The notes below the pieces were generated by a model. The model saw nothing but the letters and a program-made list of their open reading frames with translations, was not told where the DNA came from and ran no database searches. Below are positions 21,209 through 46,877 of a DNA stretch of 64,000 nt, in pieces; position 1 is the stretch's first letter; every line of letters starts with the position of its first letter. Origin of the DNA: Bilabrum cf. latius (taxonomy: Eukaryota); the NCBI GenBank assembly GCA_965178125.1, contig OZ237735.1, forward strand, positions 1,860,001 to 1,924,000, in the 5' to 3' direction. Both the position numbers and the translations under genes were made by a program.

Positions 21209-22475
21209 TAAGAGGTCAATATTAACCACTTCACAACATCTTAAGCCGTAGTCCTTCATAATGTCCTTCACTTGAACATAATAATTTAATAGCTATTTAT
21301 TCATATATCTACCTAATTTAATACCTTCGCGCCGTTAATGTCTATCTGTTAGACCTTTACTTTACTTAATCTGTTGAGTGAATCCCTAGCCTAAGTCTTA
21401 GGATATGCCCGCCCGAAATTGCGGAAATATATAGTCATTTAAGAAAATATGTTCGCAATTCTGGGCGCGTAGGTGTATTGAGTTTTATATTATGATTTGG
21501 TTTTAAGTATCAATTGACATTTACCACTTTAGAAAATAACTAAATAAATACTTAAAGAGATTGACAGAAGTATTAAAGTCTTTTTAATACTTCCAATGAA
21601 AAATTTAAATTAATAAATAAAACTAAACTAATATATCAACTTAATTTATCTCTTTTTTTATTACTTGTCAATCTATACTTAAATAATTGAATATTTAAAT
21701 ATAACTAGAAGGAGATATTAATCACTTTATAAAGTCTTTTATATGTCATCTCTTCAAAACTTCAAATATAAGGGTATCCCCTTAAAAATACATTCTTTTA
21801 TCTATCGCCCGAAATTGCGGTAATATTATAGCTATTCAAGATATATTTCTGCAATTCTGGGCGCGTAGGTGTATTGATTTTTATTTTTCATAATTCTTTA
21901 AATATGTTAAAGTCCTTTGTTTGAGTATATGATATAAAGGAATACAAAGCGGGATAACTTAAAAATGATAAATGTTTTGACGATGACTTTAAAATGACTC
22001 AATGAACTGGTTTATGTCAAGTGTATTACTTTGAAATGATTAATCACTAGATTAAATGGAAAATATAGGATAATAAAATATGGTATAGTATAATACTAGC
22101 GCCCGAAATTGCGGTAATATATTAGGATATTAAGATATATTGTCGCAATTCTGGGCGCGTAGGTGTATTGAGTTTTATATTTTGTTAATTTTGACATAGT
22201 TATCTTATAGAGGTGTAATTTTGTAATAAAGATATTTCTAGTATGTGCTATATTAAATGTCCAGAAATGACGGCCCGAAATTGCGGAAATATATTAGGAT
22301 ATTAAGAGATATTGTCGCAATTCTGGGCGCGTAGGTGTCTTCAATAATTAATAATCAACTACTTCTTTATTTTGATTAATTTTTTTGACTTACCGTTCAT
22401 TTTATTGACCACTTAACGGGATATCACAAAAAGACTTAACCACTTGACGAGATATTTTAAAATAACTAATAATAA

Positions 22476-22550
22476 ATATGACCGCCCCAAATTGTATCTC
22501 CAGATATGACCGCCCCAAATTGTATCTCCAGATATGACCGCCCCAAATTG
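22476..22550 (+). repeat. 28-bp tandem repeat (2.7 copies) of the palindrome's left arm within the TIR
   Basis: ATATGACCGCCCCAAATTGTATCTCCAG twice, then ATATGACCGCCCCAAATTG. Confidence 0.9.
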
Positions 22551-22700
22551 CGGAAATATATAAGTATCAAGAAAATTATGTTTGCAATTCTGGGCGCTCA
22601 CCCGTATTCAATTTTACATATTCACTAACTCATACCACTTATTTTAAGTCATTTTCTAGTTTAAAAAACTTAAAGATTTATCTAGTATATTACTATAGTA

Positions 22701-22910
22701 ATGCCAGATATTAAAGATGTATTAAAATAGGTTCAAGACATTATGGAAGATTATCAAAGACTCAAGGAATAGGAGACCAAAAAGAAAGAAGCTATTAAAA
22801 AAGCTAAATAGAAATATTACCAAAAGAATCAAGAGAAATGGAAGGGGTACTATTAGAAGAGAAAACAGGTTAAGGATGAACCAGATACAGAAGGATTAAA
22901 TAAGACTTAA
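22701..22910 (+). CDS. Virophage hypothetical basic protein (69 aa)
   Basis: ATG 22701 to TAA with four in-frame TAG; TATCTA upstream. Confidence 0.6.
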
Positions 22911-22942
22911 AAATATATTCTATTATTATAGTATTATTAATA

Positions 22943-23155
22943 ATGGATTTAATAGATACCAAATCAAATAATCAAGTTATCAATAAACCAATACATCAAT
23001 TACAAGACTTACCAATAGAGTTTCAAGAGACTATAAGTTATTTACTAATCGGGAAATCCCCAGCAGAAATTGAAAAATTTAAAAATACTCTAGTTGTGCG
23101 CGAAAATCCATCTCAATCCTTTAAGCCAAAATAGTGCGTCTAGAAAATGACTTAA
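22943..23155 (+). CDS. Virophage hypothetical protein (70 aa)
   Basis: ORF extends through two TAG to TAA. Confidence 0.5.
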
Positions 23156-23185
23156 AAAATTATCTTTAGTATAGTATATACTAGA

Positions 23186-25984
23186 ATGACGACCGAACAC
23201 ATATCTAACCCTGTTTATTTCTCAATAGCTCACAACTCTAAACAACCACTTATTAAGTCTTGGTAGAATTTGGAATCTACTAAACTTATCACCAGAAAGT
23301 CAAATCTTAATGTTGGATTACTAACTGGAAGACGTGCAGGTTTCTTTGTCCTTGACTTAGATTGTGAAAAAGAGAAAAATAAAACTGAATTTCAAAATGG
23401 TAAGTTTATTGCGGAATATGGTAGTGTTGATAAGTTTATTCAAGAGATGAATACTTACACTGTCAAGTCTCCCAATGGATATCATTTGTATTTTAAGTAT
23501 GAAGAAGAGTTTAGTAAGAGGTCAGTAAATAGAAAAGAACATATAGATGTGATCACAAATGATAGCTTTATCATGTGTCCTCCTAGCTCTATCAACGGTA
23601 AGAAATACGAACTAATACAAAAGACATCCGTGAAAAGAATACCAACTGACGTCAAGATGTTCATACTACAAAATATCTATTCACCACAACTTACAGCTGA
23701 AGACTACCGTTATATGATTAAACCCGAAGAATACAAACAATACTTATATCAATTAGGTAAAGAGTATTATTCTAATTCATATAACTGGCATCTAGTTTGT
23801 AGAGCTACAAGTTATATCGCTAAATACTTAAATCCAGTAGATGGTAATAAGGTATATGATATATTTGATGAATGGAGCAAACAAGACGTAGAAAGCTATT
23901 AGTCGACTAAGAACAAGATAATTTTTACTCGATTATTACAAAATTCCACTTTTCAATGTGTTGAATGGTTCTTTAATTAGTTAGATAGTGAAAAGAAACG
24001 ACTTAGCCTATATTATCGATACAAGATATTCAAGAATAAAGTAGTCAAGAAAGTCAATTAGAAGATTGACCGTAGATATTTGACTGCTGACGACAAAGGT
24101 CGTTATATTAAATTCTTTAAGAAAGGTATCAACTATGCCGTTAAGTCGGGGGCTGGTTCTGGAAAGACAACTGCTGCTAATGATTTATTTAATAGAGTAG
24201 ATGACAGCTTTTTATCAGTTGTTAGTCGTATTTTATTAGGTAAGCAATAGATGCGTAGTCTTCCAAAATCAACTAAATTCTATCAAGACCATAAATACAA
24301 ATAGGGTGATAGTATTGTTATTACTCCTGAAAGTATTGTTAGTCTTAGCAATTATAACTTTAAGGATTATATTGTCTTTTTAGATGAGTTTAATAGTATC
24401 TTAGAACACTGTTTAAGTTCTACGACTTTATATGGTAGGCGACCAATGAGTTTCATTACTCTTATTCGTGCTCTTACCACTTGTAAGTAGTTCATAGTAG
24501 CAGATGCTGACTTATCTCAAGATGCTCTATATTTCTTAGAATTATTAAAATTAGATTATCAATATATTAGGAATGACAGAAACAGGTTCAAGGGCACCAA
24601 AACTGTATTTGTTAATGACGAACAGACTTTTAGAGATGAGTTAATGAAACACAAGAAATTTATGCTTGCTAGTGATAGTAAGACAAAAGCTGATATAATC
24701 AATGAGTTAATTAGTCTTAAAATTATAGATAACGAGAAAGATAAGAAATTAAATAAAATCTTAATACTTACAGCAGAAAGCGAAGACAAAGACTATGATA
24801 TGGATTTGTTTGATATCATTATCTTCTCACCTAAAGTCATTTACGGGATAGATAGCACTATGACTAGACCAGTCTTTGGTTATTTCAAAGGTCATACTAT
24901 CACACCTCCCCAAATGGTTCAATAGCTTAACAGATGTAGAAACCCATCACATATCACTATATTTTTTGATTACTAGAAAGGACGATCTAGCACATATGAA
25001 AGTCTTTCACAAGTTAAATCTTTTATGGCTACCTCTTTAAAAGACTACGAAGAATTAGTTAAATTTGTCAGTGATACATATCCCGACTTCAACGAGGTAG
25101 AAGTAGAAGACAAAGTAGAAGAAGAAATGAGCAAAGTTAAAATCATATTCAAGAAACTATATCGTAATTATCTTTACAAGGTAGATTGTTATAAGACAAA
25201 CCCTAAATTACATATGATTAAGTAGTTAATTGATACCGGTTATGACGTGTCTTATGATTTATCTGTTAAGATCACCAGATGTAAGGATAAAGAAATCAAA
25301 GATACCATTAAAGAAAAACAACTTGAAAATTTTGATATTAATTGTCTTAATGTCAAGAAGATTAATAAATATTTAGACTTAGATGAAGGTGATATTGACA
25401 AATACAAAGAGTACTTTATTAATAAAGGTAAGTTATCTAATTTATTTAATTTCAATAAATTCTTTAGACAAGATGATAAGCACTTACTTGTGAAAGCAAT
25501 TAATAAAGGCGAGTTTGATATTATCAATGCTAAGTCTAGTTCTAGAAAATTAGTCTTACTTAATAAGATGATTGATACTTTAGGTCTTAAAAGAACTAAT
25601 CTTGATTATAATATCAAAAAGAAAGTATTAGATCAAGACTTAACAGATGAATATAGGACAGTGTATGACTGCCAAAGAAGAAGTAAAGTTGACTTATCCA
25701 CTGATAAAGGTCTTTATTACGAAATACTTAAAGTATATAAATCAATGTTTGGGAAAGACATATTTATGACTTGTAAGAAAAAGAAAATTAACTATGATGT
25801 AGAATTTAATTAGGATATTATTGATGAGATGGAATATATCTGGTCTAACAAGAAAAAGACTCGTGAAGTAGATATATTTGTTGATGATGAAGAGGTTCAA
25901 TTACCCGATGAAGAGATAGAGGTTGACTTAGACCCCGCTTTATTTGTTGATGAGGATAATGATCCACTAGAACAACAAAATTAA
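23186..25984 (+). CDS. Primase-polymerase + PriCT-like + origin-binding (UL9-like) SF2 helicase fusion (932 aa)
   Basis: NVGLLTG...FFVLDLD, KSPNGYHLYF, MCPPS (Prim-Pol); FDEWSK (PriCT-2-like); KSGAGSGKTT, SRILL, FLDEFNS, ADAD, SPKVIYGID, QQLNRCR. Confidence 0.85.
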
Positions 25985-26046
25985 ATTATGACTTATTAAT
26001 AAAAAACTTAATAAGACTTAATAATACATACCTTATATAAAATGAC

Positions 26047-26397
26047 TTAGTGGTCTCTTTTTGTCTTTTTAATTTTTTCTTCTCTCTTCTTCCTTTCACA
26101 TTCACTTCTTTCAACACGATACATCAGCTCCTAGACGTGTTTCACTTGCTCTTCATATTCTAACTGTTCCAATGTACTTTCGAGTTTCTTGATAATATTG
26201 TCGAATTTAAAACTAAAGACATTCTAACGATAACCATCACCTTTGTCTTTTGGTTTCATCCATACATATTTATCAAAGTGATTCTCAATACTTTTACCTA
26301 TACTACTGACTACATCATCGACACCTACACCTTTAACAAGACATTCATCTATAAAATTTTGAGATAGTTCAATTTTGATATCTTCTTTATCTGACAT
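26047..26397 (-). CDS. Virophage hypothetical protein (116 aa, MSDKED...)
   Basis: Open with TAG=Gln; preceded by CGCCAAAA...CTATATATATAG. Confidence 0.7.
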
Positions 26398-27122
26398 TAC
26401 TATATATATAGTGGATATTTTTTGGCGAAAGTAATAAACTAGTCTTAAGATATGACCGCCCGAAATTGCGGTAATATTATAGCTATTTAAGATATATTTC
26501 CGCAATTCTGGGCGCGTACGTGTATTGAATTTATTTAGTTATCTTTCAAGTGGTCAAATTGATCTGTATCACCTTTTTTGATACTCTCAATTGAACCAAT
26601 ATTGCTATTGATTACTAGATCTCGTATGCTCATCATTATAATTGGAAATGTTGACAACATAACATCATCATTTGAATAGTCTTTTTTGTTTAAATCTATT
26701 TCTTTCAAGTACTTAATAAGGTCTCTCTCTGTTTTAAATATATCTGTGTCGTCTTCTAATTTTCCATTTTCATTAACCAGTAATAGCTCAAACTCATCCT
26801 TATCTGCTTCTTTTACAAATGAAATAGATACAAACTTATCAATATCCTTTTTGTTATCTACGAATAAGTAATTAAGTTGTTTAAGCTGTTCACCTTGAGT
26901 TATTCGATATCCCTAATAGAATTCAACACCAGTGAAACATATATCATCAACTTGTTTAATTAAATGGAAGTCTAAATTATCTGACATTACTATATATATA
27001 GTGGATATTTTTTGGCGAAAGTAATAAACTAGTCTTAAGATATGACCGCCCGAAATTGCGGTAATATTATAGCTATTTAAGATATATTTCCGCAATTCTG
27101 GGCGCGTAGGTGTATTGAATTT
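26387..27122. repeat. 146-bp direct repeat (26387-26532; 26977-27122): palindrome + promoter + start codon
   Basis: One mismatch seen between copies; each supplies the Met-Ser-Asp start of a different ORF. Confidence 0.9.
26535..26987 (-). CDS. Virophage hypothetical protein (150 aa, MSDNLD...)
   Basis: Open with TAG=Gln to TAA; same upstream module as the neighbouring gene. Confidence 0.7.
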
Positions 27123-27162
27123 TTAAATTTATTTGAATATAATATTTTTTACCTCTTGGTGC

Positions 27163-27475
27163 GTTGTGGTCTTGGTCTAGTGATATCGTGATTGTTTCAC
27201 AAAGTCAAGGTCGTGGGTTCGATTCCCACCACTGACATCGCCGTGAGTCGTTCTGTAAGTCATACTTATGACAAAGCACACGTCTTGCAAGTCTTTGAAG
27301 GGAGTTTGGATACTGTAGAAGTAGTCGTAAGTGGTTGTAGCAGACTTAGTCGTAAGACTTAATAGGGTTTCAGGTGCATCAGTTCACGTTCTGGCTCCGC
27401 TACAACAATGACTTACGAATGACTTCGCCAAGTAGTCAAACCATCGGTATAATTACTAGCTCAAAGAATTTTTTT
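27163..27475 (+). ncRNA. Putative Pol III ncRNA: degenerate tRNA-like head + long structured body + T7 terminator
   Basis: A-box-like TGGTCTAGTG, T-arm GTGGG-TTCGATT-CCCAC; helices 27246-27263/27408-27424 and 27334-27341/27399-27406; GTAA tetraloop 27348-27359; TTTTTTT 27469-27475. Confidence 0.55.
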
Positions 27476-27480
27476 AATAA

Positions 27481-27903
27481 TTAATCCATATTAGGGGGTT
27501 TCTTATACAAGATAGCAGGGTCGCATCCATTTGTTGGAAAGTCTGCTGGATACCACCCCCATACTACTTTATAAATATCTGTGCTGGTGTCGTGTTCAAC
27601 TTTATGATAAAAAATACAATCATAATGAATACCATTCTAATTACGCACCTCTTGCTCCATCTCTTCAATTATCTATCCTACCTTTAACTTTGTAAAGCCT
27701 CCTTCACTTACATATGTCTTTATATGACCTCTATTATTTACCTATATCTAATCTTTATCTATTACAATGTCTTCAGGATCTCCTTCAAGTTCATCATCTA
27801 AGTAAACCTTTTGAGATTTAAGTGTTGGGTCTTCTCTATGTGGTAAGAATAAGAATGAATACTCCATATAAAGTAAGTCTTCACACGGTGATACTGCTGC
27901 CAT
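27481..27903 (-). CDS. Virophage hypothetical protein (140 aa)
   Basis: Absent from the ORF track; open with TAG=Gln; CGCCAAAA/TATATATAG motif upstream. Confidence 0.7.
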
Positions 27904-28090
27904 AACTATATATATAGTGGATATTTTTTGGCGTAATATTTAAACTAGTCTTAAGGTATGACCGCCCCAAATTGCGGTAATATTATAGCTATTCAAGATA
28001 TATTTTCGCAATTCTGGGCGCGTACCCGTATTGAGTTTTTAAATTTAGTCAATATTTATAACTTTTAAATATTAATTAATAATTTACGAC

Positions 28091-29977
28091 TCACATATTG
28101 AGCTACTTTCTAAGTTTCATAAGTTGAGCCTTAGTTAATTTCTTACCTCCACTGGTCAAAAGACTTCCACCACTAGTTAAAAGACCTGCTCCAACACGTT
28201 CAGCTAAGTCATTCACTTCATCGGGTAAGTATTCACTTACTGCTTGCCTTGCTTTACGAAGAGCTGGTTTCACTTTATCAAATTTAGCTTTAGCTTTCTT
28301 TCCAAAGTCTACCACTTTACGTCCTAAGTCTTTAGCTTTGTTAAAGGCTCTCTTAAAGAATTGCATCACTTTACGACGTCTTCCACCTAATACGTTCTTA
28401 GAGTAGTTCATATTAGAAAATGTATAATTAGAAGGTTTAGCCACTTTCTCAGGGTCAACAGAAGCACTATCTTCACGCCATTCAATAGCGGCACCTCTAG
28501 TATTCACGATAATCTTGTCATAGGCACAGAATAATTGAGCTTTATATCCTTGAGACATAGCAGCGGTTGGGGGTTCGTCATAGGCTACTTGAACACGAAT
28601 ACTAATAGGGTCAGCACTGTTGCTTTGAATAGTTTCAGGAGTATTTAAATCACTAAGTCTAAATAAGAGCCAGCCATTAGATCCGTATACTTTAGAAGCA
28701 CCTCCTACAGTTACATCTAAGTTAGTAAAAGAAGCATACTCACTATTTGATCCATTTCTTTCACTAAGTCTAAAGATATCGTCTTGTGTAAGTTCTCCTA
28801 AAATAGAACCCTAAGACCTAAGTTGTACTTTAATATTGTTAATGGCAAGTGTTCTATGAGGTGTACCACTAGCTTCTCCATATTGAGAATCAACTAAGCA
28901 CACAGCAAACCAAGAAGGGCAAGTCTAAAGTTGATAATTATTAAAAGTATGGACACCTTTAGTAGTGATAGGATTATCAAGTTTAGGCTCTTCATGTAGT
29001 TCAAAGTCAACAGAGTTGTAGAATATTTGTTTAGGTACTTTCTTCAAGAAGTTAAGATGAGTATTATAAGTAAAGACATCAAAATGGATCTAGCAATCGG
29101 ATAAAGCAAAAGCATAGTCTCCATTCCAATCACTTGAAGTATTAAACATCTTATCAATTAAGTTATTTCTCATTTGTAAATTAACATTTAATTGTGGATG
29201 ATCAACAAAAGGTCTAGCATTACCACCCATCATATATTGGAAAGGACGTGCAAGAAGTGCTTCAGAGATTTCAATATGTAATTTGACATAGTCTTGAGTT
29301 GGTGTTACATTATTATTAGGTATTGGAGTATTAGCATCCACTTTTTCAAGTGTTGCGCGGTAATTCTTACCAGGACCGCGAGCTTCCATAATACTATCAT
29401 CATTTACACCCCATTGAAGGACAGACTTAGCAAGACCATTTGCGGCAGTATTAAATTCCCAAGTGTTATCAGCCTAAAAGACAGGACTTATTTGTGCTAG
29501 AGTGGCACGGTCAAGACTTCTAGCTATTAAATTGACTAATTGATAAGGTGATGAACTACGAGATAAGTCTCCCATTTTAACTGTGGAACTTGTGATCATT
29601 GAATTTACCATAAATGTAGAAGGGGCTACCTTATTGACGATATCAGTTTGAGCTACTGCTCCATTGTTCTAACTATCATAGATGTATACGTCAAATGAAA
29701 CTCTTAGACGGGGATTACTGTCAGTCATTCCTTGATTTGATGGCACGACAAAAGTGTAATTACTTCTAAATGCATTAGTTGCGCTAGAGTTACCACCATC
29801 TGGTTCATAGTGGTTTTGGAACTTGGAAGAGTATCCAAGGGTAGTTCCTAGAGTAATAGCTTGACTATCACCCACAAAGTTGAGTTTTTCGTCAGCTATT
29901 TGAGTTACTGGTAGTTCTGAGACGTCATCTACGACTTTGCTTTGTGCTGCTACAGGTACATTATCCATATCAGACAT
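28091..29977 (-). CDS. Virophage major capsid protein (628 aa)
   Basis: Three track ORFs in one frame joined by TAG. Size and segments (YTFVVPS...DS..LR, ISEALLARPF, LQTCPSWFAVC, IFRLSEKNGS, C-terminal GG tail) resemble virophage double-jelly-roll MCPs; adjacent to penton. Confidence 0.85.
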
Positions 29978-30019
29978 TATAAATATATTAAGACTAAAGA
30001 TATTTATTTATTTTTTACT

Positions 30020-30946
30020 TTAAGTTATTAACTTTTTACTTTTAAATAGAGCTTTTATATTAAGTCCTTGTCCAAAAGTAAAGGGTATTTCGTATAAGTT
30101 TCCAAAAGTATCTCTAAAATACGGTACTATACTATAACTATTAAATGCTGATCTATAGAACTATTGCCATCTATGATTTCCTCCACTACTAAAGTTTATT
30201 TTAATAAAACTCGTTCCTGTTGTATTGTCTATCTTGAAATCACTTAAGATATTTTCACTTTGTATCTCTGTACTAGATGTACTTTTATATGATGGCGTAA
30301 ATTCTGGAAGTATTGGAAGTGATGGACTAATAATTTGAATATACTCCATAGTAGGAAACTAATCTAAGGTAGAAGCACTCTATTCATTATATCCATCTAA
30401 TAGATTTATATAAGTATCACTCTTGATGTCTTTACCTTCATCGTCATATTCAAATGTCTCAAATATAGAGAATAAAGGAAAGTTAAAACTTAAAGTCCAC
30501 GCACTTGTAAAAGCCGCTAAACGGGTGAAACTAAAAGTTTTAGTCTTACCGTGATATTCAAATACTATACTATCAGTTGGAATACTAGCATCTCCACATA
30601 AATCACTAAGAGTATTATTAAATTCATTAGATAGGGTCTTAAGACTATAATATAACGACTTGGTTAAGACAATATTACGAGTGTAAGTAGTTCCATCACT
30701 CTTCTTCACAAACGACATCTTATAAATTGACTAATTATCGCTATTCTTTACTTCTTTACTTGCTACAAATAAAGGAATACGACATTTAAGAGTCCATCGG
30801 TCAAGTGATAATAAGTAGTTTTGTGAATTTGTCAAGATATTACCTTGACGCTGTTCATGTATTGATACTGGTCTATTAGTATTAATAGATGTTATAGTAT
30901 CCTATGAGTTAATATAAAAGATATCTGGTTCTTGAATCTCTACCAT
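30020..30946 (-). CDS. Minor capsid (penton) protein (308 aa)
   Basis: EQRQGNILTNSQNYLLSLDRW, ILSDF and RDTFGNLYEI...IKALFK resemble virophage pentons; lies directly upstream of MCP. Confidence 0.8.
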
Positions 30947-31306
30947 TCTATAACATTTATCAAGAAAATAAGTCTTGTCTAATGCCCCAAATTGCGGTAA
31001 TATTATAGCTATTTAAGATATATTTCCGCAATTCTGGGCGCGTACCCGTATTGACTTTTTGAAAAAGTTTTTATTAATTATTTGACTCATTGAAAAAATC
31101 CAATATTCCGAAATTTTAAAAATTTAGTATCTTAAGATATAGTATAATACCAGCGCCCCAAATTGCGATAATATATTAGGATATTAAGATATATTTCCGC
31201 AATTCTGGGCGCGTACCCGTATTCATTTTTATATTTTAGTCTTTTTAATATGGCCACCTTATAGATATCAATTTTCAATATCTAAAAATTTATGGTATAT
31301 GTCATA

Positions 31307-31855
31307 TTAACTAATTATCAAAGTAATAAGTTCATCATTATCTAGTCCTCCTCCATACTTTTTAAAAGCCTTCTTTAATTGACTATTAAACTAATCATTC
31401 GTTAAATTATGAAAGAGAAGTCTGAGCACACTCCACCGACCGCATGTGGCAGAGTTATTTGATATTAATTGATTCTTTTGATTTGAATAGTCAACATTAA
31501 TACCAGCATCTAATACGTGATCTATTAGAAGACTACTTCTATCATATAGCTTCTATGGGTCTATGACTCCTCCTACGACTGGAATATGAGTATCAGGTAA
31601 TTGACCATAACTATCCCAAAAATAAAGAGTATTCTTTGATTTATTAAATATGACCGCAGTATAATGACCGCTCATTGTTGCTCCTTCTACTAAGTTAGGA
31701 TAATAAAGGACAAATAAAGGATTTTCATCTAGAAATTGTCTGATGTTATTAGTATCACTTATTTCTTCATACATTATAACTGGTATATGCTACTTTGTAA
31801 ATGTAAAGTATAGTCTTTGTACCTCTTCAGGACTTAATGCAGTGGTTATATCCAT
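31307..31855 (-). CDS. Adenain-like maturation cysteine protease (182 aa)
   Basis: GHYTA, FWDSYG, Q...ATCGRWS catalytic motifs. Confidence 0.9.
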
Positions 31856-31874
31856 ATACTTAATACTAAGAAAA

Positions 31875-32942
31875 TTAATATACGAACATCTATTTAGGAC
31901 AAGTGATAAAATTATAAGTCTTATTAATACATAGCCATCTATTACCTTCTCCAAACAATTTATAAACACGATTTATAAGACTTGCATCAAATCCTAAATA
32001 TGCTTTCATTAAATATTTGCTAAATTTCCATAGATTTCTCTTAAATAAAATAATATTATGACTTTCCATGACTATTGACCTAGTATTCGCATAATCATTC
32101 GTTAAATGACTTATAACTATCATATTTGTTGAGCTATGTCTTCCAACTTCACCTATACGCTTAATTAAGAATAACGCTCTCTACTTTTTATCACCGTTTA
32201 AGGCTTCATAATCATCAAATACCACCACAGAAGGACCCTATTTTGCCCATTCTTCATACAATGGAGTAGTGGTAAATGATGCCTTTGTCTTGTCTTTACT
32301 TGTTGGTTTCATTCTTTCTATCTCTATCTCTCTTTTAATTAATTCATGAGGTTCTAATGACTTCTTTTCCTACCTAAAGAATATCTTTTCTTCTTTGTAT
32401 TTCCTCATTAAGTCATCATAACTATCGTTTCTATCTACTGCTACTAATTTATCAATATCAATAAAATTACCATATTTTAAATAAGTTGGATTTGTTTCCT
32501 GTACTGGTGTAATGACTAAAACCCTCTTCTTTGGAATGAACATATGATAATACTTGAGTAAAGACTTAGCAATATAAGACTTACCAGCACCAGCCTAACC
32601 ACTTAAATAGTGTATTTGTCTTTTGGTCTCATCATCAAAGAATGGGACTATTTCAAACTAACTCTTATCATCTATTCTTAACTCGTTAGTCTTTCTAACT
32701 AGTTTTTTATTTCCATTCACTAGCTTACACATCTCTTCACGTAATGCTTTTTTATTCTTCTCATATTTAATTGCTCTCTTTCCATAATACTCTTCAAGTA
32801 AATCATCACTTATATCTTCTGGAGTTATGACTTTTTCCCCTACATCTTCACTAAAAAAGACGCTTTTGTTCCTCTTCTTGTGCTTGTATTCTCTTAAAGC
32901 AACTAAATGACTATTTGGTATTTCATCGTATGATAATGACAT
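31875..32942 (-). CDS. A32/FtsK-like DNA packaging ATPase (355 aa)
   Basis: Walker A G[TAG=Q]AGAGKS, Walker B VVVFDD, GRH, VISH. Confidence 0.9.
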
Positions 32943-33087
32943 TATATACTATATGTTAATATTTATTATTTTTCTAATAATTAGTGGGTTCAAAAGGTAT
33001 ATTGTGAGAAGTAGCCATTTCAAATATTCATTTTAGAGTGCACAGTCTTAAGAATATGATTAAAATATCATATAAATATATAGAATT

Positions 33088-35100: not shown

Positions 35101-35139
35101 ATTTAATAATATTATCTATTATCATAATATAATTATACG

Positions 35140-36582: not shown

Positions 36583-36825
36583 ATGGTATATACTATAATA
36601 TTTTAATTTAAAAATATTACATTGTAAGAGGTGGCTATATTAAAAATGACTAAATTATAAAAATCAATACGCCTACGCGCCCAGAATTGCGGAAATATAT
36701 CTTAATATCCTAATATATTATCGCAATTTGGGGCGCTAGTATTATACTATATCTTATACTACTAACTTTTTAAAATCTCGTAATTTAAAAAAAAAATATC
36801 TAGTCTAGCTAATATAATATAAGTA

Positions 36826-37548
36826 ATGGCAGGAATATACAATCTCTTAAACAAAAATGAATATGAATTAAAGAGTAAGTCTATTGAAGTAGAATCAATT
36901 AAAGCAGAAGGCTTTGATGGAGCCGCTAACTTTGGACTTAACTTCAATGGTCAATCACTACCCTATATTATGAGTGGTACTAATGAAGATGCTAAGTCTT
37001 TCACATGGAGAATAGGTAAAAACTCAGCATCAGCAGGTGCATCTATCTCAATCAATGTCGCAGGTGATGGCACTCAAACCAGTACTATGACAGCAACCAA
37101 CTTCTTATCATTTACCGGTACACATGTAGCATCTTGTAGTGATGTTGCTTCTAGTTTACCAGCTGGTATTGGGTCAGTGGTTACTCTTGATAGTGTAGTT
37201 AATAAAGGACCCACAACTAATGAATATGTCGTAAGTCAAGCATCTCAACATTCACCACCTTTTGGAGTATATGTAGGAGAACACCATGATGATGGTAAAG
37301 TACTTGTGGCATCTTTAGGTGATGGAGCTGTGAAAGTAAATAAAAATGGAGGAGATGTAAGTGCGGGTGACTACTTAATAAATAGCTCTGATAGTGGATA
37401 TGTCTACGCGCCTAATCCTCAACCAGTCTCTGTTGATTAGACTATTGTAGCAAAAGCTCTAGTAGATGAAGACTTTTCAAGTGGTACTTCTACTGATGCT
37501 AATGGAGTAGAATATAAAGTCGTACCTTGTATTTTCTTAACAGGATAA
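36826..37548 (+). CDS. Fibre/spike-like protein with putative C-terminal autoprocessing chaperone-like domain (240 aa)
   Basis: SFTGTH...SLGDGAVKV...GDVSAGDYL..S..GY resembles spike C-terminal domains of large DNA viruses. Confidence 0.55.
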
Positions 37549-37591
37549 TTGAGTTTAATTATAGAAATATCTTTTTTATTAATATAATAAA

Positions 37592-38230
37592 ATGGATGGA
37601 ATCAGTTCAAGCAGTGTCGTTGTAGGAGGTTTAAGTGTCTTACTACCTCTAGCATACTCTGGTGGTATGTCTTGTTGGTAGTGGTTATGGGATAAACCTT
37701 TACATAAACGTAAAAAAATATGTATCTGTGTGCCTGAAGGTAGTGGTAAGTCTACCGCTTGTCAAATATTACGGTCTAGTTCTAAAGACTGTTTACTTGT
37801 TGATTTAGATAGTACTCTAGGAGTATATGTCTAGGAGCCCGAATTACTTATGAAACTAGACGAATGTAAGTTAAAAAGTGATTGGGGTAATTATAATATA
37901 CTTAATAGAAAAGCCAGTAAAGAAGCCCTTCAATGGGTAAAAGATAACTGGTTGAATGAAGGTAGCGAGAAGAGAGTAATATTCTTTACTAAAGAGTTAA
38001 GTCTAGCTAATGAGTTATTTAAAAAAGAAAGTATAGTTGTATGTCTTCCATCTAATTCACTATTCTAGAAGACTTTAAAGAATTAGAAAGTAGATAAATA
38101 GAAGTCTATGTTAGAAGACCGTAACTCTTATATCAAAGAGTTGAACCCTTCTAGCTATTACATTTATAATACTTACGAATAGCTTCACGATAAATTGAGG
38201 AATTGCCTCTAGTTAGGGTACCAAATATAA
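37592..38230 (+). CDS. P-loop NTPase/kinase-like protein with N-terminal hydrophobic segment (212 aa)
   Basis: VVVGGLSVLLPLAY; ICVPEGSGKST; LVDLD. Confidence 0.65.
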
Positions 38231-38386
38231 TACAAATAAATACAAAATAATACAAAAGTCAATACGCCTACGCGCCCAGAATTGCACAAATATATCTTGA
38301 ATAGCTATAATATTTCCGCAATTTCGGGCGGTTAGATCCTAAGTTTAATTATTCCGCCAAAAAATATTTACTATATATATATAGAA

Positions 38387-38701
38387 ATGAACTTTAATAA
38401 TATTTATAACATAAAAAGTTTGAACAATATATTAAAAAAGGTAAAGACAGCTTTTGATCAATTTTTTGATGGAAAGGACCTTCGTATTTGTGAAGTTGAA
38501 GAGCTAAAAGAAGTAGAAAAAGACTAGATTATTACCTACGAAGATATTAAGTCTATCCTAGGTCTTAAAATGGCTATGTTGCCTAAATATGAAGGAATGT
38601 TTTAGATGGCGCAAGATTACAAAGATTTTCGTATTATTAATGGCTTACTTGATTTAGAAATTATGAATGAGTTAAAACGTGTGGAAAAATCAACACGGTG
38701 A
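38387..38701 (+). CDS. Virophage hypothetical protein (104 aa)
   Basis: CGCCAAAA...CTATATATATATAG upstream; bracketed by two palindromes. Confidence 0.65.
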
Positions 38702-38813
38702 GACGCCCAGAATTGCGAAAATATATCTTGAATAGCTATAATATATCCGCAATTTGGGGCGGTCGTATCTAACCTGTCAATTTGTATTTTTATAATTAAA
38801 ATACATACTGATA

Positions 38814-39320
38814 TTACAATTTATAATCTAGACAAATATTGTCTGGTTGTTTAGAAGTATTACATAATAGACTTAACTTTTGATCTATTTCTTTTTCTAC
38901 TCCTGTTTTAGTCTTTTCGTCTTCTTGTTCCATCTCTTGGACAGTCTCGTTGAATTTATCCACATCACCGTAAGTCTTTATAAATACTTGTTTTTTCTCG
39001 GACATCTTGATTTTGCTATCCTCCACATATTGCTCTCCTTCAATATTACATAATATATTATTAAGATGGAGATAACTTTCTGCTTTGTCATCGTGATCTG
39101 TGCTTAATACTTCAACATACTTTGTTTTAAATCTAAGTTCCAAGTTATGACGTATTTCACTCATATGTTTATGGATCTCTTTTGGGTCTTCTATTTCGCT
39201 CTCTTCATACATTGCTATTATAGTACTTATGACATCACTAGGGTTTTCGTCTCGTATTTTAAGTATTAAACTAAAGACATCAAAGTATTCATTTAAAAAC
39301 TTCCAAATTGTGTTTTTCAT
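38814..39320 (-). CDS. Virophage hypothetical protein (168 aa)
   Basis: Clean ORF ending TAA; CTATATATATAG upstream. Confidence 0.7.
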   Translation of the reverse strand: MKNTIWKFLNEYFDVFSLILKIRDENPSDVISTIIAMYEESEIEDPKEIHKHMSEIRHNLELRFKTKYVEVLSTDHDDKAESYLHLNNILCNIEGEQYVEDSKIKMSEKKQVFIKTYGDVDKFNETVQEMEQEDEKTKTGVEKEIDQKLSLLCNTSKQPDNICLDYKL

Positions 39321-39339
39321 TTACCTATATATATAGTGG

Positions 39340-40020
39340 TCATTTTAATAAGATATTTTTAAACTTTGTAAAGTTATCATGAATTTTATCACTATCACCC
39401 CAGCACACTTTAGCATACCATAAGTTGCTGTCATACATATCGGTCTCATCAAAATGAATATGTCCTAATACTCGCTTTCTCATTTTATCAGCGTGTGATT
39501 TACCTCTTCTTAAAGCATCAGGATAAGTCTATGTATTCTTTTTGTTAAAATATACCTTTGTATCATTAATCTCTACACAATAAACATATTCAGGTTTATC
39601 ACTCACTGTAAGATCACTAATATTGATTTTTGGTTTTGGTTTCTCTTTAATTGGTTTCTCTTCAATGACTTCACTCACTACTTCACTACTTGTATCACTA
39701 TATGTATCATTCAAATAGTCTTCCTCTTTATTATCCTCTATGTCTTCGCTATCTAATTCAACATCTTCCAATATAGCCTATTGTCGTTCTAATTGTGGAG
39801 GTTTTAACTAGATAGGTTCTATTTTAGACGGTTGTCTCACTAAATTTATAGTTGCTATCTCGTCCCCTTCATCATCTATTTCACCCTATAAACTTGAATA
39901 ATGCTTGTTAATCCATAACATTTTTAAGTCATCACGAGACCACTTGTACTTTTCACTTAACTTGACTACTCTTTTTAGAAGGTCTTTATTTTTGTATCTT
40001 GTTATATTTAACAATTCCAT
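39340..40020 (-). CDS. Virophage hypothetical protein (226 aa), acidic middle
   Basis: Open with TAG=Gln; C-terminus KVCWGDSDKIHD resembles KILWGSDNAIKD of 44738-45145. Confidence 0.7.
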
Positions 40021-40122
40021 ATACTTATTATAAATAATTTCTTTGACTTTGTTTTATATTAATATGGTAAATACTAGAAAAAATTAATATTTCAAAAGTC
40101 GTATCTATACACTGGCTAACAT

Positions 40123-41902
40123 TGATGCCAGAGTGTACGCGCAACCTAGTCTCGTTAACAATCAGACATGGCAAGACCTGACAAAGCTGTGCCTGTGCGC
40201 GACCCTTGACCGGACTGACCGGGGCTGGGAAGAGCACGTGCACTACTCCGCCGAGGAGGAGGGGGTTGGGAGGGTGGGCAAAAATTACCCAATCTCCGCC
40301 CCTCTCCTGAACACAGAGAGGGTATGCGCGTCATCGCAAGCAATCCGTTGGCTTGGTCGCACCTTCCCGGTCGCAACCGCCATCGGAACCCAACGAGACG
40401 TTCACGCGCTCCCACTCTGGCATCAACACCGAACCCCATCCGGCGTTAGGATCATGATGCCAGAGTGTACGCGCAACCTAGTCTCGTTAACAATCAGACA
40501 TGGCAAGACCTGACAAAGCTGTGCCTGTGCGCGACCCTTGACCGGACTGACCGGGGCTGGGAAGAGCACGTGCACTACTCCGCCAAATCTTACCGCCATG
40601 TCTTGTACGCTGCGGCTGTGTGGCTCACTCCAAGTTCAGCCGCAGCGCGCTGGCCAGCACCCACACTGGCCTGTTCAAATCGAGGCTCCTGCCGCCGAGC
40701 TCCAGAGGAGGCAAGCCTTCCCTGACGCCCCGCAAGTACACCTCGCATGCAGATGCCGACTTCCATCTGCCAAATCGCCTAATGACCTCGAAGGCGACCC
40801 CAGCACGGTCCAAACACATCACTGCCGCGATGCGGATGGAATGTCCGTGCACCGCTCCTGCAACTTCTCGTGAGCAGAAGCTGCGGAGCGCCCGTACTAC
40901 CTGCGCCTTGACGATCGGCTTCGTGTTCGCCACGAAGACTGGCCCTGACGTGGGGCAGCTGAGCGCCAGCTACCGGGCGTAGTCTTCGTCTGCGCCTGCA
41001 GTTGGGGCGTGGCTCGCTGCTGCCCACGCCACGAAGGCTCGCACGCCGCAGAACCTGCTGCCTGTGACTGCCCATCGTCCGGCTCTGCAATGGACTGCGA
41101 TGGGCTCTGCGGCTGGGATGGAGAACTTGGCTGGGCCGTCGGCTTTGTGGAGGCCCAGGCGGATGGCAACACCATGGATGCGTCCGTCTCGCGTGATGAA
41201 CTGCACTTGCTGCCATTGGAGGCCGGCTTGTCGTCTGGACGCACCGACGAGCTCTCCCAGCCGGAGGCCCCCACAGAAGCAGAGACAGACAGCTGTCCGA
41301 GCAGCCTACTCTGTTGTGCTGCAACCGGCTGTCGAGAAACACCGTCGGATTGCGCGGAGTGGGGCTGAAGATCGACGCAACGGGTGCGCCGATGGCGATG
41401 CTTTGTGGTAGTACCGGAGGATGCTGTCGAGCTAGCGTGACCGTGGGACGCCGCACGCTCCTGTGGACTCGATGACGACTCGCTAGGCATTTCTGGTGTA
41501 TGTAGCGATGGTGCCGCCACTGAGAGGCGAACATTCCCCTAAGAAGACTGCGAATCTCGAGAGCGCTGCATTGAGCCTGAACGCGAAGAGTCTGCGAGCT
41601 GCTGGAAGATGCCCGTCCATGAAACTGCGGTCGATGTCGTACCACGTGAGGAAGTTGTCGAAGTGCCCCCACGCCGTGCGCAACCCACTGAGTCCAGAGT
41701 GGCCACCAGCGTGAAATGGTAAAACCCAAAAATTACCCAATCTCCGCCCCTCTCCTGAACACAGAGAGGGTATGCGCGTCATCGCAAGCAATCCGTTGGC
41801 TTGGTCGCACCTTCCCGGTCGCAACCGCCATCGGAACCCAACGAGACGTTCACGCGCTCCCACTCTGGCATCAACACCGAACCCCATCCGGCGTTAGGAT
41901 CA
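40123..41902 (-). mobile_element. Non-autonomous Ngaro-type tyrosine-recombinase retrotransposon
   Basis: GC-rich insert with split direct repeats A1-ORF-B1-A2-B2 on the minus strand: A 176 bp (41727-41902, 40279-40454), B 130 bp (40455-40584, 40123-40252); no TSD. Confidence 0.9.
40625..41720 (-). CDS. Tyrosine recombinase (DIRS/Ngaro type), start uncertain or truncated
   Basis: Three track ORFs in one frame; GLRLGEL, HSIR, GRWKS, VYLR catalytic residues. Confidence 0.85.
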
Positions 41903-42030
41903 AAAATGATAAAATTATAAAAATCAATACACCTACGCGCCCAGAATTGCGGAAATATATCTTAATATCCTAATATATTATCGCAATTTGGGGCGCTGGT
42001 ATTATGCCATAAAGTATATTACTAGATTAA

Positions 42031-43686
42031 TTATCTCTATCTATCAGAATAGTCTTTCGCAAGTGGTCGTATTTGGTCTTTCCCATAATCCTATTCTAAT
42101 TTCTTACGGGTAATCCATTCATTAAACTTATTAGAATATCCCTTATATTTGACTAAGTATTCAATAAGTCTATCTTTATTTTGTCTTTTATCTAAAAACT
42201 TCTCTATTGTGTCTGGTTCTACTTCTAAACCTTCAACATTATCAATTTCAGGCTCTTCACTTTCCTTGTCTATGTCATCATTTACCTTATCTTCGTGTTC
42301 TACATTGTCTATTTTCTATAACTGTGAAGCATTAAAGAATCCAGTAAGAGGTTCTCCCTCTTTGTCCATTACTTTATATTTAATCCTCTACTTAGGATTT
42401 CTTGGTTTGGTCTTCTATCTAACAGTGAAGACTTCTCTAGACCAATTAAATAAATTTCCTTTAAACTTGTTCTTCTCAAGTAATACTCTAACTCTATCCC
42501 CTACATTAAGATCTTTATCATTCCCGTCAAAATTATTTGATAATTTCTTATTTTCAATTCTAGATCTAACTACTTCTAAATTTTCGGGTTTCATTGCTTC
42601 TAGTGGAGACATTCCTATAGTGTTGTGTTTTCTCTTATTATATGCTCTTACTAGTCTCTATAATGACGTATGCCAAACACCATCACTGTCATTCTTAATA
42701 GCAAAGTCTTTTCTAATCTATTCTTTTATAGTCCTATTAAGTCTTTCAACTGCACCATTAGACTATGGATTTCCTGCGATGGTGAATAGTGGTTTTATGT
42801 CATTGTCATTCATAAATTTAATATATGCCTCTTTATTAAACTCATTATCACTTAACATAACAGTCGGTTTTCTCCAATTAGGTTTCTTAAATAGTTTCTT
42901 CATCTCACGAATTATATTAACTAATGTCTTATCTTTTAATGAAATACTCCATAGGTATTTTGTGAATATATCCATTATATTTAATATCCAATTATAGCCG
43001 TCATTAGTGTCTGAATACTTTTGCATGTCTATTAAGTCCAAGGCGTAAATTGAGAAAGGCTTAGTAGGTACAAAAGAACTTACTGCTGACTGTTTAGGTC
43101 GTTTTTTGGTCAATTGGTGGAGCATCTAGTTATTTAACCACTTTTCTACTTGTCGTCTTTTAATACGTTTATCTTTTTGTCTAGCTAGGTCATATAACGC
43201 ATCACGACTGACTACATTACCTTCTTCATAATATAGTTTCTTTAATATTGGTTTATAATTAAATTTGTCTTTGTCGTCCTCATCTTCTACTTCAATTAAT
43301 TTACCGGTTGGTTTATTAAGTTTTTTCGTCTAAGCTTTAGTCATCTTATAAAAAAGACGAACTAGGTTAGACTATTGAACGCTAAAATGAACACGACTCA
43401 CTAAGTTATATAAAGTGAAATAGTCTCCATCCTTCTATATTGAGTTAATTACCCCACCTCTTCTAAATAGTGGCTTTCCCTTGATATTACTTACATAAGA
43501 TACATAAGAATATAAAGGTATTTTTTTAATACTTGCTTTGGTAGTTGGTACCTCTTCAAATCCTTTATCAAGTAGTCCCTTAATAGTGGCTTCTAAATTA
43601 TCACTATCTTTTTGATTTTTTGTCGGTTCATCACCATACGTGTAAGATATTTTACCTCTAGTGTATGTCTTGCCTTTATTAGTCAT
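42031..43686 (-). CDS. Retroviral-type (rve) integrase with C-terminal chromodomain (551 aa)
   Basis: ALDLID, MDIFTKY, SDNEF, P[TAG=Q]SNGAVERLNRTIK, YN..H..IGMSP, VGDRVR; chromo EYLVKYKGY...NEWI. Confidence 0.95.
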
Positions 43687-43772: not shown

Positions 43773-44006
43773 TTATGCTGTAATTGTTCCATTTTTCTTT
43801 AATATTTCTTCTCGTTCTTCTTTACTTTGAAGATTATAAAAAAGAGTCTATGATCCATTTGACATATCCCACTCATTGCCATCAAAACATAATTTAATTT
43901 CATCTTTTAAATTGTCCTCTATAGCTTTTATAGCCTTTTCAATAACTTTATTATTTTTACAAGCTTTTAAAAACTTGGGAGACATTATAATTTTCAAGTC
44001 GTACAT
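43773..44006 (-). CDS. Virophage small hypothetical protein (77 aa)
   Basis: ATG preceded by CGCCAACA...TATATA; open with one TAG. Confidence 0.45.
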
Positions 44007-44046
44007 ATATATAAAGACGATATAATATGTTGGCGTAAATTAAACA

Positions 44047-44580
44047 TTATTTCTTATATTTCTTTCTCTTCTAGTTACAGTCATAACAAAACCAGAAAGT
44101 GGCTCCTGGTTTAATAAGATACTTTTCACATTTCTTACATTGTGAGTATTTCCTCTTTTTATTATAACAACTAAGACAAGTCTTTTTATATTTATGTTTT
44201 TCAATGAACTCATCGCAATCAGTGCATCTACTCTTATCTTTTAATATGTCTTTATTTAATTCGTGTTTAATGGATTTAATATGACTTTTCCAGCTACTAC
44301 GTTTAACAACACAAGAGCATACATCACAAGTCTTATACATACAAGCCTTATACACATCATGATCCTTTTCGAATGTGTTATTAATACATTCAGAACCTAA
44401 TTTAAATATATCACCAGTTGGGGGATACTCAACGAAATGAACTTCCTTAATTTGGTGATCACAGATACACTTTCCGTCTTCTTCTCTAGTCTCTCCAGCT
44501 GGTATTAATAGAGGGGCTATCTTATTCCAGTCATTAATCTTTAGCTTATTGATTATGAAGTTACGACATTTATAGCACAT
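44047..44580 (-). CDS. Cys-rich multi-zinc-finger protein (177 aa)
   Basis: CICDH...GSECI, CxxC...H..S..H and several further CxxC. Confidence 0.75.
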
Positions 44581-44737
44581 TATAATATAGTATATACTAT
44601 AATAATATATTATTTTTAAGTCTAATTAAACGAGATGTCTTAAGCTCGATTCAAATTTGGGCGCCCGAAATTGCGGTAATATTATAGCTATTCAAGATAT
44701 ATTTTCGCAATTCTGGGCGTTTAGGCGTATTGACTTT

Positions 44738-45145
44738 TTAATTTAATATTTTTAATTGTTTCAGTCTTGCGTCCACTTTAGACCTATAGTCATCTAACCA
44801 TTTTTCCAAAGTATCCCCTTTAACATACCTTTTTACATCTAATACTCCATTGGCTAGTTTTGTTAAGTAGTCCTTTATAGCATTATCACTTCCCCATAAG
44901 ATTTTATGACTGTGATATTTTGAGCTATTAGTATCGGTAGTCTTCCCGTGTCTTCGGTAGTATAGGCGTCGTCTTTTAGGGTCAATATGGTTATTATCTC
45001 CATACTTACCAATCAAATCAAAGTATTGAGCATATCGTGCATCACCAAAGCTAGTGATATACTTACCATTTTTGAATACATCATATTTCTTATTTCTACG
45101 AGTAGAGGGTTTATATTTGAATCCATCAATAATTATCTCATACAT
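44738..45145 (-). CDS. Small basic protein of a type seen in giant viruses/virophages (135 aa)
   Basis: STRRNKKY...SFG...Y...RR..Y..RH...ILW pattern; family not confirmed. Confidence 0.7.
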   Translation of the reverse strand: MYEIIIDGFKYKPSTRRNKKYDVFKNGKYITSFGDARYAQYFDLIGKYGDNNHIDPKRRRLYYRRHGKTTDTNSSKYHSHKILWGSDNAIKDYLTKLANGVLDVKRYVKGDTLEKWLDDYRSKVDARLKQLKILN

Positions 45146-45344
45146 AATATATTATGATACAAGATTTATTAACTTAGTATATTGTCGGTAAGACTTGTAA
45201 ATTAGTTATTAAATAGGTGAAGACTACCAAGACATATCATAAGACAAAATCATTTGTTAAGGACTAGTTAGAAGAAGTACTCAATACATTGATACAAGTT
45301 AAAGGACATTCTAAATATGAACACAAGATCAAATGGACCACTTC

Positions 45345-46877
45345 AAGTGGTATGAGTTAGTGAATATGTAAAATTGAATACGGGTGAGCGCCCAGAATTG
45401 CAAACATAATTTTCTTGATACTTATATATTTCCGCAATTTGGGGCGGTCATATCTGGAGATACAATTTGGGGCGGTCATATCTGGAGATACAATTTGGGG
45501 CGGTCATATTTATTATTAGTTATTTTAAAATATCTCGTCAAGTGGTTAAGTCTTTTTGTGATATCCCGTTAAGTGGTCAATAAAATGAACGGTAAGTCAA
45601 AAAAATTAATCAAAATAAAGAAGTAGTTGATTATTAATTATTGAAGACACCTACGCGCCCAGAATTGCGACAATATCTCTTAATATCCTAATATATTTCC
45701 GCAATTTCGGGCCGTCATTTCTGGACATTTAATATAGCACATACTAGAAATATCTTTATTACAAAATTACACCTCTATAAGATAACTATGTCAAAATTAA
45801 CAAAATATAAAACTCAATACACCTACGCGCCCAGAATTGCGACAATATATCTTAATATCCTAATATATTACCGCAATTTCGGGCGCTAGTATTATACTAT
45901 ACCATATTTTATTATCCTATATTTTCCATTTAATCTAGTGATTAATCATTTCAAAGTAATACACTTGACATAAACCAGTTCATTGAGTCATTTTAAAGTC
46001 ATCGTCAAAACATTTATCATTTTTAAGTTATCCCGCTTTGTATTCCTTTATATCATATACTCAAACAAAGGACTTTAACATATTTAAAGAATTATGAAAA
46101 ATAAAAATCAATACACCTACGCGCCCAGAATTGCAGAAATATATCTTGAATAGCTATAATATTACCGCAATTTCGGGCGATAGATAAAAGAATGTATTTT
46201 TAAGGGGATACCCTTATATTTGAAGTTTTGAAGAGATGACATATAAAAGACTTTATAAAGTGATTAATATCTCCTTCTAGTTATATTTAAATATTCAATT
46301 ATTTAAGTATAGATTGACAAGTAATAAAAAAAGAGATAAATTAAGTTGATATATTAGTTTAGTTTTATTTATTAATTTAAATTTTTCATTGGAAGTATTA
46401 AAAAGACTTTAATACTTCTGTCAATCTCTTTAAGTATTTATTTAGTTATTTTCTAAAGTGGTAAATGTCAATTGATACTTAAAACCAAATCATAATATAA
46501 AACTCAATACACCTACGCGCCCAGAATTGCGAACATATTTTCTTAAATGACTATATATTTCCGCAATTTCGGGCGGGCATATCCTAAGACTTAGGCTAGG
46601 GATTCACTCAACAGATTAAGTAAAGTAAAGGTCTAACAGATAGACATTAACGGCGCGAAGGTATTAAATTAGGTAGATATATGAATAAATAGCTATTAAA
46701 TTATTATGTTCAAGTGAAGGACATTATGAAGGACTACGGCTTAAGATGTTGTGAAGTGGTTAATATTGACCTCTTATGTTATCCGCCAAAATGTGTGTAG
46801 TTTTTATATAAGTAAACTCTATTTCTACTATATAGTAGAAATAGAGTTATCATAACTCCACATTTTGGCGGATAACA
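45345..46877 (-). repeat. Right terminal inverted repeat (1,533 bp)
   Basis: Reverse complement of 21108-22640. Confidence 0.95.

Follow-up and report, generated by a model that had tools for sequence, protein, structure and literature searches.

The stretch of DNA analysed here, referred to as the window, comprises 64,000 nucleotides from Bilabrum cf. latius (Eukaryota; assembly GCA_965178125.1, contig OZ237735.1, forward-strand positions 1,860,001 to 1,924,000). It contains an integrated virophage of 25,770 bp (21108-46877; all coordinates are positions in the window) that is punctuated by 22 copies of a palindrome of fixed geometry and that encodes a candidate partner for them, a primase-polymerase (PrimPol) fused to a helicase resembling UL9, the origin-binding protein (OBP) of herpes simplex virus (HSV). 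The original prediction, made from the sequence alone, had read these palindromes as protein-bound sites acting as terminators, as dispersed origins for the UL9-like helicase or as recombination sites.

An integrated virophage without pPolB

The element has TG...CA termini and a 5-bp target duplication (GCTGC), and its GC content of about 30% contrasts with about 60% in the surrounding DNA, whose flanks are rich in retroelements. At 21108, contigs from two other sequencing runs depart into differing flanks, which confirms the end of the element and shows further insertion sites. Its terminal inverted repeats (TIRs) are identical over 1,533 bp (left, 21108-22640, plus strand; right, 45345-46877, minus strand), and the left TIR is without a convincing gene. 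At each tip lies a near-perfect palindrome of 101 bp (21108-21208, mirrored at 46777-46877; -51.9 kcal/mol, z -13.5) that is distinct from the dispersed motif. This terminal palindrome starts at the first base of the virophage, and its arm word, CGCCAAAA, also occurs in a promoter-like motif that precedes six genes, the integrase among them.

The PrimPol-SF2 helicase, a candidate initiator of 932 aa with a UL9/OBP-like helicase domain, is encoded on the plus strand (23186-25984; PF09250, E 9e-14). On the minus strand are the virophage major capsid protein (MCP; 28091-29977, 628 aa; PF22031, E 3e-7), with 60 relatives of 219-630 aa, a cysteine protease (31307-31855; weak Pfam match, E 0.004, with homologs in other virophage loci), a packaging ATPase of the virophage type (31875-32942; homologs in virophage loci) and an rve integrase with a chromodomain (42031-43686, 551 aa; PF00665, PF00385). 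Homologs of the ATPase and the protease are present in the virophage loci L002, L003, L004 and L046, and the open reading frame (ORF) at 30020-30946, which has no penton match in Pfam, has a homolog adjoining the MCP gene in L002. The element therefore carries the virophage-type MCP, packaging ATPase and protease (the last by its weak Pfam match) expected of the Maveriviricetes, as well as the rve integrase, TIRs and short target duplication typical of Mavirus and the EMALEs. The ORFs gave no match to the protein-primed DNA polymerase B (pPolB) in Pfam or PHROGs; the only large ones are those of the PrimPol-helicase, the MCP and the integrase, and none other is big enough for pPolB.

Architecture of the palindromes

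Scanning the full window with up to three mismatches per arm and spacers of 28-32 bp recovered 22 copies, the number that had been estimated, each of 58 bp and all within the element (first start 21410, last end 46575). As had also been claimed, each TIR holds five, so that only 17 of the 22 are independent; there are 14 distinct 58-mers and 12 distinct spacers. In the left TIR the copies lie on the plus strand at 21410-21467, 21806-21863, 22100-22157, 22272-22329 and 22539-22596, with two partial 28-bp duplicates of the left arm in tandem ahead of the fifth, and in the right TIR they lie on the minus strand at 45389-45446, 45656-45713, 45828-45885, 46122-46179 and 46518-46575. Eight internal copies are on the plus strand: 26457-26514, 27047-27104 and 27963-28020, each inside a 156-bp cassette of palindrome, promoter and start (the third also after the MCP stop), 30983-31040, 31154-31211, 33616-33673 and 33735-33792 (both at a convergent junction) and 44662-44719. 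The other four are on the minus strand, at 36678-36735, 38273-38330, 38704-38761 (convergent junction) and 41938-41995, the last of which follows the integrase stop in an orientation opposite to the usual one. The longest internal gap between copies is 3.9 kb, and the density in the unique part of the element is 0.57 per kb, about 2.5 times the median of its relatives.

The 14-bp arms and their conserved asymmetric mismatch were as originally described; 22 of the 28 arm positions, and one further two-state position, hold none but the letters given. The spacer, AT-rich and estimated at about 30 bp, measures exactly 30 bp in every one of the 22 copies. Conservation continues for about 7 bp into the spacer from both sides, giving a half-site of about 21 bp, while the centre is variable and AT-rich. 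The start of an AAGA landmark falls on spacer position 19 in most copies (14), on 18 in one and on 17 in two, with the total always 30, a pattern that suggests compensating indels under a length constraint, although a MAFFT alignment of the copies needs no gaps. A position weight matrix of the half-site found all 44 half-sites in pairs, with no further match above a score of 6, and therefore no lone half-sites. One of the palindrome-family detectors used below returned 17 palindromes in the element versus one in its shuffle. The one-sided tail is likewise real, occupying positions 59-77 (19 bp) and finishing in a T run. Every 58-bp core is intergenic when ORFs are called with translation table 15, and two of the tails touch a stop codon.

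The site plan recurs in helicase-bearing relatives

The original prediction had tied its reading to conservation in related elements, and here the sequence of the motif and its architecture behaved differently: the former is not conserved, the latter is. The exact motif had no match in IMG/VR, none in 82 viral loci and one in metagenomes. This single match, L001, is a bacterial palindrome, intergenic and rich in GC, whose spacer is unrelated; we took it as chance and excluded it from every count. Searches for loci by MCP gave nothing or single loci. The comparison was made between loci carrying the helicase (the best 80 of 132 in IMG/VR) and 82 control virophage loci, namely L002, L003 and 80 virophage-ATPase loci (the best 80 of at least 179). 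Loci are called polinton-like on the basis of an A32 ATPase match and shared gene clusters, not of an identified capsid gene.

Three detectors of increasing sensitivity were concordant on the families. With the last of them, at least three dispersed palindromes that lay between genes and had arms and span in common were present in 48 of the 80 helicase loci versus 4 of the 82 controls, and 0 of 162 intergenic shuffles reached three palindromes or ever had more than one. Once redundancy had been removed and length and GC had been matched, 41/53 helicase loci and 2/36 controls were positive (excluded on the helicase side were 6 loci without a called ORF, 13 at 90% identity and 8 by length or GC, and on the control side 6 loci as redundant and 40 as short or GC-rich, with L103 kept as a negative control). 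Within virophages only, sites were found in 4 of 9 helicase-bearing loci versus 3 of 80 others (p 0.0016; table compiled by hand, with L046, which duplicates L021, left out and L097 counted together with L007). Two controls with family-type sites belong with the helicase group, L103 through a partial helicase match and L097 through an arm shared with the helicase-bearing L007.

The geometry of the sites is kept in these relatives. With no constraint placed on the span, 188 of the 242 arm pairs lay no more than 1 bp from the modal span. The arms vary among clades on a common plan of an outer GC block, a short A/T tract, an inner TG-led block and an AT-rich centre, and the half-site of the polinton-like locus L051 agrees with the arm of the element at up to 13 of 16 positions.

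The PrimPol-helicase as candidate partner

A profile built from 25 homologs of the 932-aa protein matches the HSV replication origin-binding protein over the helicase core (E 1.4e-8), and its N-terminus matches the archaeal PrimPol ORF904. The AlphaFold model of the protein has a pLDDT of 80.9. With the helicase model as query, the top four Foldseek matches were HSV OBP-oriS complexes (best 9hgj, E 6.7e-13), and the top two VIA-align matches were again HSV OBP-oriS (Z 24.8, rmsd 3.7, 379 residues aligned; next folds Z 22.5). By profile and predicted fold, HSV-1 UL9 is the best solved match of this protein. Its viral matches are giant-virus primase-helicases, several of them called origin-binding proteins by annotation only.

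Placement and spacing of the sites

Most internal copies had been said to follow stop codons, and 10 of the 12 indeed lie within 100 bp past one; 7 of the 12 also lie within 100 bp upstream of a start codon. Eight of the nine copies at tandem junctions have the same orientation relative to the transcript (the exception is 41938), several of the nine being duplicates of one another. None of the three divergent junctions of the element holds a copy, though two are too short for one. Every copy can fold, at a mean of about -23 kcal/mol on either strand (-23.8 versus -22.4, so that the strand is not discriminated). These features would suit a role in ending transcripts, as terminators specific in sequence or as polyadenylation hairpins that the machinery of a helper virus reads, and there is precedent in the hairpin polyadenylation of Mimivirus (PMC4402537) and the hairpins of Sputnik (PMC6723459). 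In the relatives, however, sites were equally frequent in divergent (31/114, 27%), convergent (26/103, 25%) and tandem (98/387, 25%) junctions, and their orientation ignored the direction of the transcript (pairs concordant in 40 cases, discordant in 30 and ambiguous in 25; p 0.28), which disfavours such a role. Moreover, ten copies of the element are located in gene-free TIRs, and a hairpin signal would require neither a fixed loop length nor a conserved mismatch. Termination as the primary role, with neither a preference for 3' ends nor a tie to transcript direction in the relatives, is thus improbable. Plain AT-rich hairpins after stop codons reached p<0.05 versus shuffles in 2 of 24 cases, not above background, leaving a separate hairpin-rule signal unsupported.

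The spacing of sites in the relatives has a median of 3.5 kb and a coefficient of variation of 0.38, versus 0.70 +- 0.05 under random junction choice (0/2000; 24 loci). Sites adjoined the helicase gene at the 5' junction in 22 of 37 cases and at the 3' junction in 20 of 40, the corresponding values for unclustered ORFs being 50/283 and 58/256. Density in the relatives, with a median of 0.23 and a maximum of 0.45 per kb, is below that of the element, which exceeds every one of them. This excess, together with the spread of copies along with flanking DNA, is what selfish MITE-like miniature repeats or neutral products of gene conversion might produce. On the other hand, no target duplication was seen around the copies by eye, the left flanks varying and the right flank being the fixed tail; 38 kb of host flank and the coding DNA hold no copy; and distant relatives with diverged arms keep the fixed span and the even spacing. 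We regard this explanation as very improbable.

Recombination or cassette exchange at the copies, shuffling accessory genes, would account for the repetition of the 156-bp cassette at 85-97% with its three copies inside, and for joints of variant contigs at or near copies (28041>33612, 21484>31123, 31054>31123 and 26015>27035). Yet joints at copies are expected, because assembly contigs break at any repeat, and the joints 27475>26372 and 35644>36230 end away from the motif. The AT-rich part of the element has no tyrosine recombinase, the sole one lying in a GC-rich insert that is missing from the main allele, and recombination between copies of mixed orientation would delete or invert core genes. 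Sites of the lox/dif type used by tyrosine recombinases have spacers of 6-8 bp. The spacers here are of 16-30 bp, the AT-rich part of the element encodes no recombinase, and none of 11 recombinase-bearing controls was positive. This role is accordingly quite improbable.

The cassettes themselves lie at 26387-28048, where small ORFans follow one another in tandem, each behind a 156-bp palindrome-promoter-start cassette of identical type. Alleles differ in this interval, some having an extra gene after 27475 and others lacking genes.

Proposed role as dispersed origins for the PrimPol-helicase

We interpret the copies as double-stranded DNA binding sites that serve as dispersed origins, comparable to oriS or to the homologous regions (hrs) of baculoviruses, or as re-priming sites, for the PrimPol-UL9-like helicase that the element itself encodes. 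On the analyses above, this reading has about an even chance of being correct. Two initiator units would occupy the inverted half-sites and be set in phase by the fixed spacing; the AT-rich core between the half-sites would melt, and the fused PrimPol would prime locally at the opened core. With a site every 3-4 kb, and closer packing in the TIRs, an enzyme of weak processivity might be able to begin or resume synthesis along the genome, with elongation by PrimPol itself or by a polymerase of the helper virus or host. In the lineage of this element the palindromes may, in addition, passively double as 3' hairpins, or as patches of homology that spread with promoter cassettes; such secondary uses are plausible here because the density is the highest, the tail is polar and some copies lie within duplicated promoter cassettes. 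What the original prediction proposed has fared unevenly: the protein-bound site and the dispersed origin gained support from the UL9-like profile and fold of the helicase and from the recurrence of the site architecture in helicase-bearing relatives, while termination as the primary role lost it.

Several observations weigh against the origin interpretation. It is not obvious why a genome of 25 kb should need 17 origins, and the element possesses in addition a terminal hairpin that could prime replication. The nearest helicases in the tree, those of L004 and L005 (both with support 1.0) and of L021, come from loci that show no dispersed family within the 12.7-15.5 kb examined, fewer than three copies were found in 32 of the 80 helicase loci, and 16 of these 32 fall among the 64 loci that are at least 10 kb long and below 40% GC. 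The structural match covers the helicase part (model 279-750), with the rigid alignment ending at model 750 / chain 567, short of the C-terminal region, which in UL9 is the DNA-binding part. Gene families other than the helicase are often flanked too (cluster 4 on the 3' side in 13/18, cluster 5 on the 5' side in 12/22). The control virophages L139, L145 and L156 carry families of wider palindromes with no UL9-like helicase detected, and those of L156 flank the gene for a primase-helicase of the PrimPol-D5 type; the principle may thus be broader than one initiator, or another factor may bind. Finally, the main contrast is confounded, since most of the helicase loci belong to a single polinton-like group and the controls are virophages, and the p values overstate the case because the loci are related. 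In Mantel comparisons with four partner genes, half-site similarity correlated with the helicase at rho 0.43 and with the packaging ATPase at 0.42; it thus follows the helicase no better than the ATPase, and may reflect overall kinship rather than the helicase in particular.

Some of the loci just named show further features. L004 has a perfect 96-bp palindrome close to the end of the DNA examined, and the wider palindromes, of about 70-80 bp, lie at 1139-4360 in L156, 5595-6185 in L145 and 1155-4810 in L139. In L145, the virophage ORF at 12435-13298 on the plus strand matches the ADP-ribosyltransferase exoenzyme family of Pfam (E 7e-8).

Some of these points would equally be explained if another protein, of the element, its helper virus or the host, bound the sites as hr-like enhancers, insulators, or anchors for looping or packaging, and the link to the helicase reflected shared ancestry. 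Fixed spacing and even distribution suit any looping or packaging anchor, the correlations do not separate the helicase from the ATPase or other core genes, and the half-sites closest to those of the element belong to the polinton-like loci L051, L033, L068 and L028, which are distant from its helicase in the tree. Baculovirus hrs, moreover, serve as enhancers besides origins (PMC3496565). Against this, no capsid module is common to the positive virophages and the positive polinton-like loci, and two other shared genes fail to predict sites in the controls (DUF5754, 1/8 positive; tyrosine recombinase, 0/11). We consider binding by another protein unlikely, rather than remote.

Extended from this element to a large group of virophages and viruses of the polinton-like type (PLVs) that lack polB, the origin interpretation would imply multi-origin replication in which one PrimPol-UL9 fusion recognises, melts and primes a palindrome every 3-4 kb; this generalisation is tentative, its chances a little below even. 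How replication starts in virophages and PLVs without pPolB has been described as an open question (10.64898/2026.07.28.741278; PMC10120064), and to this question the present finding contributes a cis site and a candidate protein, both of them defined. We did not find a dispersed family of fixed-span palindromes in the virophage and PLV literature, a search that left supplements and subscription journals outside, so that a prior mention is possible. If the interpretation is true, these sites would be the first cognate origin for UL9-like proteins outside herpesviruses and would model in minimal form the descent of herpes oriS, and dozens of natural initiator-site pairs would be legible from sequence. 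Since arm sequences differ in about 50 elements with the geometry kept, there would be many natural site-protein pairs for swaps, and the set allows one to ask whether similar sites are bound by the UL9-like proteins that giant viruses and T5-like phages encode.

Genetic code and other features of the element

The island is tiled by ORFs only when TAG is read as sense (table 15). TAA and TGA remain stops, and TAG is sense both in the virophage and in the flanking retroelements. The viral genes contain 90 TAG codons versus 148 CAA and 9 CAG. Three TAG sites of the helicase fall at glutamine columns in 21/22, 20/22 and 13/22 distant homologs. Glutamine is most likely what TAG encodes, an imperfect reading because two other TAG sites fall on lysine (22/22) and leucine/isoleucine columns. 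Translated with the same table, the host-side retroelement frames run to 2,575 codons (1-7730), 2,643 (9712-17643) and 4,004 (48475-60489) and hold 17-22 TAGs each; the first and third are of the same family, with copies 52.8 kb apart.

The GC-rich insert with the tyrosine recombinase (about 40120-41900) has split direct repeats in a layout like that of Ngaro elements and lies 36 bp from a palindrome copy; the main allele lacks it in three of four runs. Over the unique part of the element (21081-40100), the word depth of contigs was about 1,200 in run X1 and about 500 in X2, versus 4-20 in X5 and X6, and the high values could be due to many copies or to amplified virus. The 272-aa protein encoded at 33804-34622 on the minus strand has a GS...DID motif, which we take to be nucleotidyltransferase-like, and a homolog that likewise lies beside the ATPase gene in the virophage L002; it had no Pfam match, and its single-sequence model had a pLDDT of 47.8.

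At 27165-27476 on the plus strand, a head that resembles a tRNA and has a perfect B-box and T-arm is followed by a structured body (27240-27470, z -3.0) and a T7 end, and the whole looks like a Pol III-type non-coding RNA within the virophage. Three pairs of the helix 27370-27376/27385-27394 show double changes that preserve pairing in other runs; folding 27165-27476 over its whole length did not reproduce this helix. Rfam gave only a weak tmRNA match, at 27180-27240, and nothing at the palindrome motif, and ARAGORN called 0 genes, none for 27165-27476.

Comparison with known systems

The hairpin polyadenylation signals of Mimivirus and Sputnik resemble the copies described here in being intergenic palindromes near many 3' ends (PMC4402537, PMC6723459). 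They differ in that the sequence and spacing of the element's sites are conserved and that the sites of its relatives, not restricted to transcript 3' ends, are equally common between divergent starts. Mavirus and the EMALEs share with the element an AT-rich integrated virophage genome, an rve-chromo integrase, TIRs, a short target duplication and a nested tyrosine-recombinase element in intergenic DNA (PMC8547959), whereas the element lacks pPolB and reads TAG as sense. The main text of that paper makes no mention of palindromes or hairpins (PMC8547959). Among the endogenous virophages and PLVs of Halocafeteria, those that combine non-pPolB replication genes with an rve integrase have a palindrome at the tip of the TIR, as at 21108-21208; in the accessible part of that report only terminal palindromes are described, and the dispersed internal family of the element is separate from these (10.64898/2026.07.28.741278). 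The Prim-S2H replicase of cryptophyte PLVs is also a fusion of a primase and an SF2 helicase (PMC12220804), for which the main text gives no cognate DNA site and does not mention palindromes (PMC12220804).

Among sites with an established function, the hrs of the granuloviruses EpapGV and CpGV are similar in form, being imperfect palindromes of about 58 bp with conserved inverted ends of 13-15 bp, an AT core and many intergenic copies (PMC3496565). The 58-76-bp granulovirus palindromes with conserved ends act as origins, and the CpGV copies function as such (PMC3496565). The dispersed intergenic imperfect palindromes of the element, with their conserved ends and AT core, have the form of hr origins. 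Granuloviruses, however, are an unrelated virus group with unrelated replication proteins, and the element is much denser in sites and encodes a UL9-like candidate initiator. Its genes are the virophage set, with neither a baculovirus genome nor baculovirus replication factors, so that the likeness would be functional only.

Two OBP dimers assemble at oriS on a pair of inverted boxes with an AT spacer, the length of which is critical (PMC12543377). The element resembles the HSV oriS/UL9 system (PDB 9hgj/9hgi) in having two inverted boxes whose AT-rich spacer is constrained in length and, in the 932-aa protein, a UL9-type SF2 helicase domain as candidate initiator. Herpesviruses have only few origins. 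The element, unlike them, has 17-22 sites per 25 kb, evenly spread, its half-sites are bipartite and of about 21 bp, and the putative initiator is fused to a primase-polymerase, its likeness to UL9 covering the helicase domain. On the origin reading, the site system would work like oriS and the granulovirus hrs, and it belongs to neither.

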